From Octopus vulgaris (lineage: Eukaryota), in contig OX597835.1 in NCBI GenBank assembly GCA_951406725.2, positions 12,152,001-12,216,000 of the forward strand: 64,000 nt of DNA. Direction: 5' to 3'. Below the pieces are notes generated by a model that was not told where the DNA came from, did no database searches, and saw only the letters and a list, made by a program, of their open reading frames with translations. Within the stretch, counting starts at the first letter, position 1. Each line of letters begins with the position of its first letter. Positions 8,975-47,503 of this stretch are shown piece after piece. Both the position numbers and the translations under genes were made by a program.

Positions 8975-9190
8975 ACTATATCGCCATGTTGATTCGCTAG
9001 CTTCTGCACGCATTTTTTTTCTCTCCTTGTTTCTTTCCGTGTTTCTTTTCTGTGTATCTTTCTGTTGAAGAGCGTAGGCTCGAAACGTAAAAGACTTGTT
9101 TTATTTATATTCCTGAGCGCCATACTAATACAATTGTTTGTTTGTATTCCACCTGCCTTCGTCTTTTGTTTATTTTCATAAAGCTTCCCG

Positions 9191-9467: not shown

Positions 9468-9851
9468 AAACGTACAGATATGTACATATACGACGGTAGG
9501 GCCTAACGGAGGACCTACTGAAGCAATCACCTGAAGACGTGTGATAATGATTACACGACATCTCACCAATGTATTAAAGGTGTAAAAACGTGTCGGAACA
9601 ATTGTACTGATTTCAAATAAAGAATATTGTTCATCCATTTTCATCGGTTATCTATTTAGATAAACTCTACGGATACTATGGAATTCCTGGTATACAGCCA
9701 GTGGCAAGAGCATTTCCACTGTATAACGACATCAGGTAGCCAATAGCAGTGGACGAGCCTTGCGTAGCATAGTACAAGCTTTTTACCTAAATCTTATTTA
9801 ACTACACACACACACACACACATACACACATATGTATGTATATATGTATAT

Positions 9852-11603: not shown

Positions 11604-12284
11604 GCTATAACTCTCTAAAAATGCTTTATAGTTATTTCCCTTACAAACCTGAGCAACGCCGGGCGATACTGCTAGTATTTACATATAGTATATAATGTAA
11701 TATCATATAAACACAGACACACACACATATACATGAAGGTGTTGCAGTCTGTTTGAGGCATACAGGTTTATGTAATAAGCATTGATTTAGAAAGACACAG
11801 CTGTGCATTGTGGGAAGTTATGTATGAATATAAACAAAAATTAAGCATTCTATTAAAACAATAATATTTCTAATAATATTTCTTGAAATATTCTATAAAA
11901 TATAAAGACTTCATTTATTTTAAAATATATAATAATAAATTAATATTTCTGTGGAAAATTTTTTCTAGGAGAGAAGAAAATTGTAAAAAAAAAAACAAAG
12001 TAACATCTTGGAACGTTTCAAGTTTGGGATGAGGCGTAAAACCGCGAATCATTAAAATATGGGAAAAAATCGAATCACAGATCGTATCTTAAGGGTTAGT
12101 TTTGGTTTTGTGTTAATTTTGAGTTCTTTTGCTGTGAATTTCTTGTTTAGCAGATGAGATGAATTTAGCAGGTGCATGAGACGAGAGGGAAACAAAAACA
12201 TTGTGTTGTGGAACCCCCGGTGAGAGTGGGTAGGTGAGCCAAAAGACTTCGCACAGTTTTTTTTTTTCGTTGCTGAGGCTTATA

Positions 12285-12332
<48 letters not shown>

Positions 12333-12389: not shown

Positions 12390-13037
12390 TGCATACATAC
12401 ATATAAATATATACATACACCTACATACACATATAGATATATATGTTTTATATTTACATATAGTATATAATGTAATATCATATAAACACAGACACACACA
12501 CATATACATGAAGGTGTTGCAGTCTGTTTGAGGCATACAGGTTTATGTAATAAGCATTGATTTAGAAAGACACAGGTGTGTATTGTGGGAAGTTATGTAT
12601 GAATATAAACAAAAATTAAGCATTCTATTAAAACAATAATATTTTAATAATATTTTTGAAATATTCTATAAAATATAAAGACTTCATTTATTTTAAAATA
12701 TATAATAATAAATTAATATTTCTGTGGAAAATTTTTTCTAGGAGAGAAGAAAATTGTAAAAAAAAAAACAAAGTAACATCTTGGAACGTTTCAAGTTTGG
12801 GATGAGGCGTAAAACCGCGAATCATTAAAATAAAAAAATCGAATCACAGATCGTATCTTAAGGGTTAGTTTTGGTTTTGTGTTAATTTTGAGTTCTTTTG
12901 CTGTGAATTTCTTGTTTAGCAGATGAGATGAATTTAGCATGTGCATGAGACGAGAGGAAACAAAAACATTGTGTTGGAACCCCCGGTGAGAGCGGAAAAA
13001 GACTTCACACGGTTTTTGTTCGTTGTTGAGGCTTATA

Positions 13038-13070
<33 letters not shown>
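11320..13070. repeat. tandem segmental duplication (~11320-12330 and ~12380-13070)
   Basis: The ~650 bp block TATTTACATATAGT...GAGGCTTATATGTATG(TG)n and the upstream GCATGCATAC...CACATATAGA block are both repeated at high identity. Confidence 0.95.
11378..11675 (+). mobile_element. Helitron-type insertion with 3' hairpin and CTAG terminus
   Basis: CCTGAGCAACGCCGGG hairpin (11648-11663), then CTAG at 11672-11675 followed by T. Absent from the paralogous site at 12431-12460. Confidence 0.7.
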
Positions 13071-13169: not shown

Positions 13170-13298
13170 TGTATCAGCTGAAATTGCGAGGATGATCCGG
13201 TTCTTGACTGAAGATTGAATCCTTCGAATGTCCCGTCCGTGTTTTTTGTATCGTCTTCTAAATGTTTTGCGTTCTTGTCCCAGTTTGAATTTCTTTAC

Positions 13299-13300
<2 letters not shown>
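13170..13300 (+). mobile_element. 3' fragment of a TA-associated element family (related to 29455-29590 and 33600-33850)
   Basis: ATCAGCTGAAATTGCG...CTTGACTGAAGA..TTCGAATGTCCCGTCCGTG...CGTCTTCTAAATG...CAGTTT running into (TA)n. Confidence 0.75.
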
Positions 13301-13363
<63 letters not shown>

Positions 13364-13388
13364 TTTTGTGCATTTTGATGTTGACATA

Positions 13389-13491
13389 AGTTCCTTGCTT
13401 TTCCTGATGAGAAAGCGGCATAATGTACTCCTTATTCCTTCGCAATTAGGAATATGCAGCCTTCGAAACATATGTCGAAAATAAAGGAATT
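13389..13491 (+). ncRNA. intact type-I hammerhead ribozyme
   Basis: TTTTC-CTGATGA(13404-13410)-stem II GAAAGCGGCATA/TATGCAGCCTTC-GAAA(13465-13468)-CATATG-TC(cut after 13476)-GAAAA. Stem I extends through TTCCTT/AAGGAA. The module lies between two (TA)n tracts. Confidence 0.9.
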
Positions 13492-13516
13492 TTGTTAATT
13501 TGTCGTTCAACTCCAT

Positions 13517-13607
<91 letters not shown>

Positions 13608-13794
13608 CATACATATACAGCGATAGGGCCAAACGGAGAACCTACTGAAATAATCACCTAAAAAGGAGTATATGTGTGAATGACAAGTGTGAGTCCAAAC
13701 GTACCACACACATATTTGAACTAGTAATAACATTACAGTTACACACTTCACTGCTTCGTGCTCCCCCTCCGTAATTTGCTTACGGTGGACTGTA

Positions 13795-13890
13795 ACTCTT
13801 CTAAAGGCAAATTCACTGCAGCGACCGTGGAGAAAAAAATTCTCTTTTATGGCAAAGGGTGTAAAAACACCATATCTGTCTCGTGTTGCT
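13795..13890. repeat. dispersed repeat also present at 56061-56155 (probably retroelement-derived)
   Basis: CTAAAG.CAAATTCACTGCAG..ACCGTGGAGAAAAAAATTCTCT.TTATGG.AAA.GGTGTAAAAA.ACCATATC is shared by both sites. Confidence 0.8.
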
Positions 13891-14109
13891 TCTCTATTCA
13901 GATTCCTTGATGCGGCGTTTCTGTCTCTCTAGACCTTCCTCTAATACTGTTCAATTTATCCCCACCTGGCGGTCCAATAGCGTAATTACTTCAATGTTGT
14001 TGAAGGTTTTGTCAGTTAAAGCTGCGGCATTAAATCTGCCCAGAGTTCCCACTGTTCGGTATTTCTAGTTGGGGAATGCTAAAGAGCCAGAAATGCTGCG
14101 GATGTCTAC

Positions 14110-15220
14110 CACAGTTGACAGCAGAACGAGAAAATCCCCGGGGTGTGGTAGGGATAATGTGTAAAGACCCGAACAAGTGGGCCTTATAGATAATTTGAGG
14201 TCCGTAACTCTGCCCAATATAGATTACAAGATTTGGGCCAAGGTGCTATCCAAGGGATTGCGTACGTAGTCGGTAAACTCGTCGATGACGCGCAGACATG
14301 CGCTATCTCAAACAGATGTATCCACGACAACTGTCGGTGTAAGTTCCACACTGGAGTTTTATAGGAGATTCGTGGCGGGAAAGAGCGACAACGTTCTTGA
14401 GGAAACTCTGGGTGTTGGCAGAAATCAATTAGTTGGCTTATTCCAGAGGAATTTGGGGCCGGGACCTATGGATAATTTCCAGAAATCCTTGGAATGGCAA
14501 TGCTACCGGGGTGCTCTGCTGTTTCGAGCCAAGCTCTACAGACACGGAAGCGCTGTCAGATGGACCTGCCCTAGATGTGAGCGATGAAACCGTTCTGCAT
14601 GCATGCATTCATCTAGTGTTCGGACATTGCTGACTTATTGTGCTTTGTCAAACAGATGTTGAAGCAAGTAGAACGGACCCGATTATCGGCCGAGTCCATC
14701 GTGAAGATCGCCTCACAAATTTTTTATGGCCATGAAGGGAAGGTATTTCTACTCTGCCTGGTGGCTGTGGCGAAAGAAGTAATGTGGCGGACGAGGTTGA
14801 ATGGACTGAAGACAGATACCTTCCTTTTCGGTTAGGGCCGGCATCTACCCTTTCAAGTTACACTTGAAAAGGACAGTAAGAGAGGAGAGGGATGAGTTGC
14901 CTTCCCGCTTCCAATAATTTTGTTGTAAGGTGAGTGGATATAGCGATGATGCACCTGCTGGCCTGAGAGAATGGAGAGAAAAAGAGACCCGTTCGAGATG
15001 CCCTTGACGTTCGAGGTGCCCTTGCTGTTCGGGGTGTCCAGGATGTGTTGGGACTTTGGTTGCCCCCAAATGGAACTTCCCACTCTTTTCGGGAGTTTCA
15101 TTGTTCGAATTTTTTGTTAGTTGTTATTGTTTTTTTTTTACACTTAACATGCAATATTTGTAAATCCTTTATGTTTTAGCGTCATTTGTTTTCGTGTACG
15201 GCCCTTGTGACCAATATAGA
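14110..15220 (+). pseudogene. Tx1/L1-clade LINE ORF2 remnant with internal deletion
   Basis: RT N-terminus DNLRSVTLPNIDYKIWAKVLSK...AQTCAISNRCIHDN is joined directly to a C-terminal zf-RVT-like WQCYRGAL...CPRC..DETVLH. Frameshifted. Confidence 0.85.
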
Positions 15221-16800: not shown

Positions 16801-17569
16801 GATGACCATATATGTACGTATTGTACTTTTCAAACAGTCACTCTATTCGTTGATGAGAATAATTTTAAACATAGCATTTAGTTTTCTCAGCAAAACTTTC
16901 TTGTTTCAATAACATTCACTATTTTTAAAGATTAATTACATTTAAATTTTTGCGTAGAATCCTCACATTCCAATTTGCTAGATTATTTTGCCAATATGTT
17001 ATTATTCATTTATGCATCGCAATCATTCATTCCCTCCAGCCGTAATTTCTTACATTTTGTTATACACCGTATATACATTGTATATATATATATTGTTGGT
17101 TATTTTATTTAATTTCACGCCTGGTAAATTGACAGAAGCAGGAACACGGCTTCAATATTCCATACAAAATATTAACAAAACCAACTGGAAGTTCTTGTGG
17201 AGCAGTTTTGTTCGAAATAAAAGCGACGCTGACATGAGAAGAGGTATATGGTTTTATGCTTGAAAAAAGATTATCGCCTAAAAAAGCTATAAAAATGTCA
17301 ATAAAACTCAATAACAAGAACATGCAATATTTTTTTTTTAAAGAGTAAAGTTGAAAAGTGAAAAGCATTTTTTTTTATTTAAATTTCGATCAAATTCAAT
17401 TTTTAATTGAAAGAAACTAGGCTCAGACTCATTTCTAGTCAAATTCCTTAAATTCTTTTCCCTTTAGCTAAATACCTGTAATTGTTGTACGGATTGCTAC
17501 AAGTATCATCTTGTACAGCTGGCTCGGATTTACCCGACTGGAACGATTCCGCCTCCGGTCATGATACGA

Positions 17570-17867
17570 CATTAGTATTCGAGTCGTCACCAGGGTAGAA
17601 TTCCATGTCCACACAGAGCTAGCGGGTGAAGGTTTTAACTGGATAACTGATCTGTGTACATTCATGCTGGGGTCTCAGGTGTCCATAGTGTGCTTATTGA
17701 GTCTTCGTGATTGTAATAATTGTATTCACACTTTGAAGCACGTATATATATATGACACCCGACACCCCAGCATGAATGTACACAGGTCAGTCATCCAGTA
17801 AAAACCTTCACTCGCTATTTCTGTATGGACACGGAATTCTGCCCTGGTGACGTCTCGAATACTAATG
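17570..17867. mobile_element. foldback/MITE-like inverted repeat, ~114-bp arms
   Basis: 17570-17683 is the imperfect reverse complement of 17754-17867, with a 70-bp spacer. Confidence 0.85.
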
Positions 17868-17964
17868 CCATATAAGACGCTATCGTAGGTTAAATTCAAC
17901 TTACGTTGAAAGTCAACAAAGCTAGATTTTTATATCGTAATTTTACAGACGAATTTGTCGCCGG

Positions 17965-29239: not shown

Positions 29240-29766
29240 TTCTTTCACTTGTTTCAGTCATTTGACTGTGGCCATGCTGGAGCACCACCTTTAGTCGAAT
29301 AAATCGACTCCAGGACATATTCTTTGTAAGCTTGATACTTATTCTAACGGTTTCTGTAGCCGAACTGCTAATTTACGGGGACGTAAACACACCAACATCG
29401 GTGTTCAAGCGATAGTGGGGGACAAACACTGAAACACAAACATATATATGTAAAAGTAAAAAAATATACAAACTGAGACAAGAACGTGAAACATTTAGAA
29501 GACGACACAAAAAACACGGACGGGACTTTCGAAGCCCTCAGTCATCAGTCAAGAACCAGATCATCGCAATTTCGGCTGATTAATCTTGATATATATATAT
29601 ATTCGATGGGCTTATTTCAGTTTCTGTGTAACAAATCCACTAACAAGGCTTTGGTTGGCCCGAGGCTATAAGTAGACGATACTTGCCGAAGGTGCCACGC
29701 AGTGGGACCGAACCCAGAACCATGTGGTTGGGAAGCATGCTTCTTACCACACAGCCACGCCTGCCC
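29240..29766 (-). mobile_element. family-B SINE with a nested insertion in its internal (TA)n
   Basis: Both SINE halves are present and 29455-29590 is foreign sequence homologous to 13170-13300. Confidence 0.88.
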
Positions 29767-46039: not shown

Positions 46040-46940
46040 CCCAAACTTTAAATATTCTCTCTTCAACTGATTTTGTCAAATTCTCAACAATCTTACTTTT
46101 GATATTTCTTGCAGCAGTTTTTATTGCTTCCCATGGTTATTCCTTGTTTGGATATTGTTTACCATTAGAATATCTCTAAAGACTCCGCCGGTTACGACGA
46201 CGAGGGTCCCAGCTGATACGATCAACGGAACAGCTTGCTCGTGAAATTAACGTGCAAATGGCTGAGCATTCCACAGACACGTGTACCCTTAACGTAGTTC
46301 TCGGGGATAATCAGCGTGACACAGAGAGTGACAAGGCTGACCCTTTGAAATACAAGTACAACTCATTTTTGCCAGCTGAGTGGACTGGAGCAACGTGAAA
46401 TAAAGTGTCTTGCTCAAGGACACAACGCGTCGCCGGGAATCGAACTCACAACCTTACGATCATGAGCCGAATGCTCTAACCACTAAGCCACGCGCCCTCA
46501 CCCATTAGAATATACATCTTTTCAAATAACTGACCACAAATTCTCTATTGGGTTTAGATCTGGCGATTGGCGGGGGTGGGTTCATTCCATTGTCATATAT
46601 TCTTTGAAACTTTTATTAGCTAAATGGTTAATAGTACGTTTAGCAGAGTGTGAAGCGGCGTTATCACGCATAAATACGTTCTTTAACTTGAAACTTCGCG
46701 ATGTTGACTTGTACCAAATGGAAGAATTTGTCATCTAAAAACTTGCAATAATTTCCAGCGTTTATTTTGATTCCATCAGCAACCTTAAATTGGCCTGTAA
46801 TGTCTCCTCCAACTATACCAGCCCAAAACATGATTCCTACACTACCATGTGTTGGTTGACGCCTTCCATGTAACACCCAGCCTCTTTCCCATCCATTAGG
46901 TCCATCTAATGTTGCACTGCACTCGTCAGTAAAAATAAGT
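46040..46940 (-). pseudogene. Tc1-family (DD34E-type) transposase remnant
   Basis: FTDECSATLDGPNGW...IMFWAGIVG...DNAASHSAK...SPDLNPIENLW...WEAIKTAA. Frameshifted and interrupted by a SINE. Confidence 0.9.
46174..46501 (-). mobile_element. family-D SINE (tRNA + CORE-like head, family-C tail), 12-bp TSD
   Basis: Head GGGCGCGTGGCTTAGTGGTTAGAGC..GTTCGATTCCC..GTGTCCTTGAGCAAGACACTT, with a tail homologous to family C. TSD CCATTAGAATAT at 46162-46173 and 46502-46513. Confidence 0.93.
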
Positions 46941-46999
46941 AGTTTCGGTATGGAAAGGAACCATATTCGGAAAAAACTTATACAAGTCTTATATATAAT

Positions 47000-47086
47000 T
47001 ATAACAATAATTAAGGGTTTAGCAACGAGTTGCTAAACCACTTCGGTATGTGGTTTAGCAACTCGTTGCTAAACCCTTAATTATTG

Positions 47087-47091
<5 letters not shown>
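47000..47091. repeat. perfect 42-bp inverted repeat with nested palindromes
   Basis: Arms 47000-47041 and 47050-47091 with an 8-nt loop. Confidence 0.95.
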
Positions 47092-47118
<27 letters not shown>

Positions 47119-47122
<4 letters not shown>

Positions 47123-47405
47123 CTACATTTCGGGACGGTCGTCTTTTTTCTTGTCAAATAAACACACGCACTGTATATTCGTTCTTCACTTATTTATTAT
47201 TCGTCTTATTTTATCTTACGTCCATTGTCAGGAGGAGACACGTACGATGGAAGAGTGGCAGAAGAGGTCACAGGCGCGTGATGAAATATTTCCAGACAAT
47301 GAACATAAGATAAAATAAAACAAATAATAAATGAGTGAAGACTGAATATATAGTGCGTGTGTTTATTTGGCAAGAAGAAAATGACCGTCCCGATATGTAG
47401 CAATA
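47119..47405. mobile_element. MITE/foldback element, ~100-110 bp arms, TA flanks
   Basis: TATTGCTACATTTCGGGACGGTC... versus ...GACCGTCCCGATATGTAGCAATA. Confidence 0.85.
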
Positions 47406-47503
47406 TCTGCTTCAACACACGACTTCACATCAGGTATCTTGCAAAACAAATACATAAACGTGCATATATATATATACACACACACACACATATATATATA
47501 TAT

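Follow-up and report, generated by a model that had tools for sequence, protein, structure and literature searches.

A hammerhead ribozyme motif between TA tracts of Octopus vulgaris belongs to a high-copy repeat family and is likely a truncated Penelope-like tail

Penelope-like elements (PLEs) carry hammerhead ribozymes near their 3' ends, in pseudo-LTRs (pLTRs), according to the passages of PMC8557442 that deal with these motifs. The same passages name (TA)n as the preferred target of the Neptune and Naiad endonucleases. One element from Octopus, Naiad_Ovul, is marked there '(TA)n; HHR_half_core'. Most PLE hammerhead motifs are single truncated copies, as the survey sections of PMC4209133 describe. 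In the activity sections of that paper, metazoan PLE hammerheads did not cleave as single motifs and cleaved at low levels as dimers. Consistent with this, hammerheads with a 2-bp palindromic stem III are described in the relevant part of PMC6765202 as dimer-dependent and weakly cleaving. A retrozyme hammerhead of the axolotl with a 2-bp stem III, HHR_Amex2, was 22% cleaved after 1 h when assayed on its own as a monomer, in an experiment reported in PMC7229834. Recently active Penelope families are recorded for Octopus vulgaris in PMC13282606; the word ribozyme is absent from the main text of that paper.

We focused on a 162-bp island that lies between two pure TA tracts. The window analysed here is a 64,000-nucleotide stretch of O. 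vulgaris DNA, and features of the island are listed in Table 1. With pure TA on either side, the island has the appearance of sequence inserted in a TA tract, in agreement with a sequence-only reading of the locus. That reading had also placed a hammerhead here, with a CUGAUGA/GAAA/GUC core, a predicted cut after 13476, AATAAA at 13480 and a palindromic stem III. The coordinates and the anatomy hold. No second copy of the island was found when it was compared with the window by BLAST.

Table 1. Features of the island and its flanking tracts (positions within the window)
Feature	Position	Strand	Basis
Left pure (TA)n tract, likely target site	13305..13359, 55 nt	.	Script and TRF
Island: 5'-truncated copy of the 3' end of a dispersed repeat family with many copies, likely Penelope-like	13360..13521, 162 bp	+	Contigs
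Stem I, 5' strand: 9 bp, 2x2 loop, 5 bp	13388..13403	+	Constrained fold
Core CUGAUGA, predicted to be hidden here by hairpin 13397-13402/13411-13416	13404..13410	+	Fold, pair probabilities 0.70-0.98
Long stem II: G10.1-C11.1, mismatches 13414.13461 and 13417.13458 (closed by common family alleles), distal hairpin 13435-13452	13411..13464	+	Constrained fold and family contigs
Core GAAA, 2-bp stem III with palindromic loop, triplet GUC	13465..13476	+	Predicted cut after 13476
Stem I, 3' strand, contains AATAAA 13480-13485	13477..13492	+	Constrained fold
Right pure (TA)n tract, followed as far as 13617 by decayed repeat (TACA)	13522..13603, 82 nt	.	Script and TRF

The island motif is a real hammerhead. 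All parts that define a type I core are present (C3-A9, G12-A14, A15.1-U16.1 and H17; three stems; open at stem I), with C3 at 13404, G12 at 13465, GAAA at 13465-13468 and C17 at 13476. A type I descriptor identified one match on the two strands of the window, which is the island hammerhead, against an expectation of 0.017 per window (mean of 60 block-wise dinucleotide shuffles). Not one of the 60 shuffles contained the full palindrome together with a 5-bp stem I. Hence, the call of a genuine hammerhead is borne out, and it is the only complete one that the descriptor finds in the window. Stem III consists of 2 bp closed by an AUAU loop; this 8-nt palindrome is predicted to form a duplex of -7.0 kcal/mol. 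In the constrained fold, stem II has three contiguous pairs beside the core and 10 pairs in 12 columns overall. Mismatches A13414.C13461 and G13417.A13458 interrupt it, and a 12-nt bulge and the distal hairpin follow. The description 'fully intact' is therefore right for the core and too generous for stem II.

Two results could be taken to favour chance resemblance in AT-rich DNA. There was no Rfam hammerhead match, either at gathering score in the 64-kb window or at E<=10 in 13250-13650. Furthermore, the folding z of the whole island is only -1.97, a modest value, and 8 of 200 shuffles folded equally well. The descriptor expectation argues the other way, as do the family contigs, in which the core is invariant and alleles that keep pairs occur throughout. 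Together these refute chance resemblance, which we consider scarcely credible.

The island is one of many copies of a dispersed repeat family and not a unique locus, a membership that the sequence-only reading had missed. Of the 24 sequencing runs listed, 20 contain at least half of its words; they come from 7 studies and carry 3 organism labels. Contigs were compared for four of those 20 runs: X2, about 76% of which was read, X3, X6 and X8. The first two are DNA-type runs and the last two are RNA-type by guess, since none of the runs that contain the words is recorded as RNA. Matching contigs numbered at least 1248 (X2), 664 (X3), 79 (X6) and 31 (X8), and were mostly 90-99% alike. Summed X2 depth, which is no measure of copy number, was 2.6e4-1.1e6 per bin once the one-base bin at the end is set aside; the longest X2 pieces have a depth of 37-64. 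The data suggest that the family has thousands of copies.

The ends of the contigs define the limits of the island. Loose ends before 13363 (7 X2, 9 X3 and 2 X6 contigs) are short, 14-30 nt, and share upstream family sequence. Because the family continues upstream of 13363, the island is a 5'-truncated copy. Behind 13521, the loose ends listed comprised 24 in X2, 28 in X3, 2 in X6 and 1 in X8. After a few extra bases, these enter (TA)n in X2 and X8 or AT-rich sequence in X3; the X6 pair are too short to judge. In X3, 13 contigs share a loose end behind 13517, with agreement 0.73, that departs from pure TA. Among the pieces listed, none reaches across the whole island. The predicted cut site is about 45-55 nt from the point where family contigs enter (TA)n. 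Among the loose ends listed for the four runs, no joint went back from the end of the family to its start. One opposite-strand joint, from 13413 to 13484, was present in a single X2 contig and resembles inverted truncated PLE copies; contigs as short as these cannot show pLTRs.

Pattern scans of metagenome_contigs and viral_contigs for relatives gave 0 matches. The family was not found in a search of openly available papers and of some of their supplements. Hence, the family is apparently new in print, while hammerheads of its kind, in PLE tails, have been described before.

Variation across the family was scored over 13398-13490, the span with listed changes, with alleles unphased. If a place is counted as variable from 3% upwards in a DNA-type run, 16 of the 93 qualify, and all 16 lie outside the 18 core and core-closing places (hypergeometric P = 0.022). 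No variant is listed at the six places of AATAAA. Both mismatches of stem II have alleles that repair them. Thus, 13414G restores a G-C pair (46% and 38% of depth in the DNA-type runs) and 13417U restores a U-A pair (13% and 36%). The 13398A allele pairs within the stem I loop; the island copy has a minority base at this place (about 20-25% of DNA depth). Pairs are kept as G-U by 13460U, 13472G and 13479G, and 13415A together with 13460U would make a compensatory A-U. Taken singly, 13399C, 13415U, 13449A, 13486A and 13490A each break a pair.

Allele frequencies differ between the types of run. At 13415, 13426, 13429 and 13486, alleles that make up 0-12% in DNA-type runs account for 40-86% in RNA-type runs; for 13426C the values are 9-12% and 74-86%. 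A minority subfamily or a few loci, of a sequence type other than that of the island, dominate the RNA-type contigs. One RNA-type contig, from X8, matches 13369-13473 with 0 differences. Hence, the sequence type of the island may also be transcribed somewhere.

The reading that we prefer, and hold to be probable, is that the island is a 5'-truncated copy of a high-copy family ending in (TA)n, likely the 3' tail of a PLE (its pLTR end), with a hammerhead predicted to perform poorly as a lone copy. The family has a dimer-type hammerhead near its 3' end, dispersed 5'-truncated copies and the (TA)n insertion bias of Neptune and Naiad types, all of which are PLE traits. No reverse transcriptase or GIY-YIG open reading frame (ORF) was found beside the island among the ORFs of the window, or in a Pfam scan of 148 of its 201 non-repeat ORFs. 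Since neither is tied to the family, PLE membership is assigned by anatomy and target, not by protein. By analogy with published PLEs, the element would encode a GIY-YIG endonuclease that nicks (TA)n. Reverse transcription would then start at the 3' end, stop early and leave a short tail, here of 162 bp. In master copies arranged in tandem (pLTRs), the palindrome of 8 nt would allow two hammerheads to associate and cleave the precursor RNA, and only there would the ribozyme do its work. At the island locus, with no partner in the window and a core-hiding hairpin that is predicted to arise first as the RNA is transcribed, it would be mostly a silent passenger.

Alternatively, the island could be a solo monomer from a family of non-LTR retrozymes, or from a non-autonomous family of SINE-like type, mobilised in trans by PLEs, perhaps via a small circular RNA. 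The 2-bp stem III with its tetraloop and the long stem I with its internal loop resemble invertebrate retrozyme hammerheads, and solo monomers are common among retrozymes, in the descriptions given by parts of PMC7229834 and 10.64898/2026.07.22.740005. No ORF was found for the family, and some of its alleles, such as 13426C, are much commoner in RNA-type runs. However, retrozymes are built of tandem 150-450-bp units, each with a hammerhead, and the locus has a single copy in the window and no go-back joint in the four runs. The listed 3' loose ends enter TA and not a next unit, and stem II greatly exceeds the canonical 4 bp. We regard a retrozyme or SINE-like origin as unlikely.

The ribozyme of the island would need a partner, because stem III has only 2 bp. 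Its predicted fold is in keeping with this. In the monomer ensemble, the 6-bp hairpin that buries CUGAUGA is already present in the shortest transcription prefix tested. A second predicted hairpin, 13462-13466/13475-13479, buries GAAA and the cut site. Pair probabilities are 0.00 for proximal stem I and 0.02-0.05 for stem III, and the predicted homodimer is likewise misfolded. The ensemble of hammerhead-competent structures is less stable than the whole ensemble by 6.1 kcal/mol, a gap that may be overstated because ViennaRNA disregards tertiary contacts of the core and the calculation had no known-active hammerhead as control. Natural alleles 13398A, 13398U, 13414G and 13417U each narrow this gap by 3.1-3.8 kcal/mol; 3 of 19 alleles tested singly widen it, by 1.1-1.6 kcal/mol. 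The island copy is predicted to be inactive, or barely active, as a lone copy. The proposal that it is likely an active stand-alone ribozyme is thus unsupported: the stem III type, the lack of a partner copy in the window and the buried core in the predicted fold all count against it.

In several RNA-type contigs the sequence stops at 13473, which is 3 nt short of the cut. We rejected these ends as evidence of cleavage. Position 13473 is 13443 + 30 and 13443 is a three-allele site, so the ends are a 31-mer assembly branch.

RNA-only changes were defined as those seen in RNA-type runs and below 0.5% in both DNA-type runs, the DNA coming from other individuals. Twelve of the 13 were T>C. By comparison, RNA-only A>G was absent from all 28 A sites; a Fisher test that takes sites as its units, although they are not independent, gives P = 9e-6. 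The changes at 13421, 13435, 13446, 13447 and 13462 are exactly zero in both DNA-type runs, and that at 13462 was seen in 11 X6 contigs and 1 X8 contig. When the minus strand is read, the A or U 5' neighbour favoured by ADAR is found at 10 of 12 edited sites and 3 of 11 unedited sites (P = 0.012). This pattern agrees with the scarcity of G just upstream in ADAR targets that is given in the sections of PMC5625713 on sequence context; editing of repeats, including Penelope in lizard, is also known from that source.

The T>C bias, with no A>G, hints at edited antisense copies and depleted sense copies. X6 and X8 are likely RNA in which copies read antisense have been A-to-I edited. In each run, the signal may derive from only one or two loci that are expressed. 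The bias could reflect loss of sense transcripts via cleavage or selection. If the flanks are transcribed, (TA)n insertions would become long double-stranded RNA, a possible ADAR target; for the (UA)n flanks in 13299-13617 a duplex of about 55 bp around the island is predicted, at -104.7 kcal/mol. A broader proposal is that the many TA-targeted tails filter insertion orientation across the genome. Host transcripts that read the tail in sense would be cut, in trans or by neighbouring copies, or purged, and mainly antisense copies, hyper-edited by ADAR, would persist in RNA. We think such a filter unlikely. A narrow literature search found nothing on strand asymmetry at hammerhead tails.

The sequence-only reading had proposed that the ribozyme, if it lies in sense within a host intron, would cleave the pre-mRNA; in a variant of this case, the transcript would end at the AATAAA nearby. 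In keeping with this, the core is complete and is the only descriptor match in the window, AATAAA has no listed variant, and HHR_Amex2 shows that a monomer with a 2-bp stem III can cleave (PMC7229834, in the assay cited above). In addition, all but one of the RNA-only changes are of the antisense-editing type, as expected if sense transcripts are cut. Conversely, the predicted monomer hardly forms stem III and does not form proximal stem I, and the predicted homodimer misfolds. PLE hammerheads are reported to be weak even as dimers in PMC4209133 and the review PMC6765202, and the island copy bears no mark of conservation beyond that of its family. Furthermore, no host gene was found: searched against Pfam, 148 of 201 non-repeat ORFs of at least 45 codons gave five weak matches, all below cut-off, in a search that short exons may escape. 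The window may be long intron or intergenic DNA. Since no host gene was found, pre-mRNA cleavage is without support, and we judge an active intronic ribozyme to be very unlikely.

The neighbourhood of the island is dense in microsatellites, SINE-like repeats and decayed mobile elements. Directly left of its TA tract is a copy (13173-13312, plus strand) of a second short family that ends in TA/CA repeats; the other copy, 85% identical, is at 29580-29442 on the minus strand. Core remnants are visible in both, CUGAAGA...GAAU at 13208 and CUGAUGA...GAAA at 29548, and neither passes the type I descriptor. To the right of the TA tract, 13598-13682 belongs to a third family and matches 9472-9550, where CUGAAGA at 9531 is followed by a degenerate GAAA half. 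The TA tract of the island seems to be a nest of three different tail-like insertions. By eye, UUGAAGA...GAAACGU at about 9060-9095 (plus strand) is like a minimal hammerhead with U3; it fails the descriptor. Just upstream of the island, 11676-12317 and 12451-13070 form a 640-bp near-tandem duplication, 95% identical. The stretch at about 13800-15200 has, by eye, the look of a decayed L1/Tx1-type reverse transcriptase, with no Pfam match. Long inverted-repeat (MITE-like) elements occupy 17564-17873, 46990-47101 and 47117-47406. At least three high-copy SINE-like families occur in the window, and there is a tRNA-like match at 46426-46495.

The role of PLE hammerheads in vivo is stated to be unclear in the discussion of these motifs in PMC8557442. 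As it stands, the present finding is of small weight, for hammerheads in PLE tails number thousands in animal genomes and have already been described. Even so, because the family is large, its core invariant and its editing signal one-sided, it would be a handy test case for whether PLE ribozymes cut host transcripts.

Domesticated intronic hammerheads of the amniote type are single-copy conserved loci within genes. The island belongs to a high-copy family and no host gene was found for it, which sets it apart from such loci in known genes, the introns of which are named in part of PMC6765202. Non-LTR retrozymes of animals are closer. Judged by the sections on these elements in PMC7229834 and Li, Clavereau and Pollet 2026 (10.64898/2026.07.22.740005), the island shares with them a non-coding, low-GC, high-copy and PLE-related nature, and a type I hammerhead with a 2-bp stem III and tetraloop. 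In contrast to them, it is not tandem at the locus, listed 3' ends of the family abut (TA)n, and stem II is not the canonical 4 bp.

Clades of EN+ PLEs that target (TA)n, Neptune and Naiad, share more with the island in the account of Craig et al. 2021 (PMC8557442, in its treatment of these clades): insertion into (TA)n with no readable target duplication, 5' truncation and a hammerhead core near the 3' end. However, Naiads have an N-terminal endonuclease and no canonical hammerhead, and the hammerhead of the island is complete. The published octopus Naiads, Naiad_Ovul and Naiad_Obim, were rejected as its parent. Of seven island motifs compared with the supplement of PMC8557442, six had 0 matches and the seventh, a 9-mer, had one unrelated match.

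The closest architecture is that of metazoan PLE hammerheads with a small palindromic helix III, from Drosophila, rotifer, shrimp and mosquito, in the parts of Cervera and De la Pena 2014 (PMC4209133) that present these motifs. The island differs in having core halves 54 nt apart, a longer, bulged and extended stem II compared with the rows examined in Fig. S3, and no ORF linked to it. Like the Marsupenaeus and Saccoglossus-2 rows, it lacks an extra base between A9 and G10.1. As in the island, AAUAAA closely follows the cut in 6 of the 44 rows examined, counted by eye. The island and these PLE hammerheads both have type I topology, G10.1-C11.1, a long helix II and a short proximal helix I, between U-rich 5' and AU-rich 3' flanks. 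Both also occur as dispersed truncated single copies with a palindromic helix III, which implies action as a dimer.
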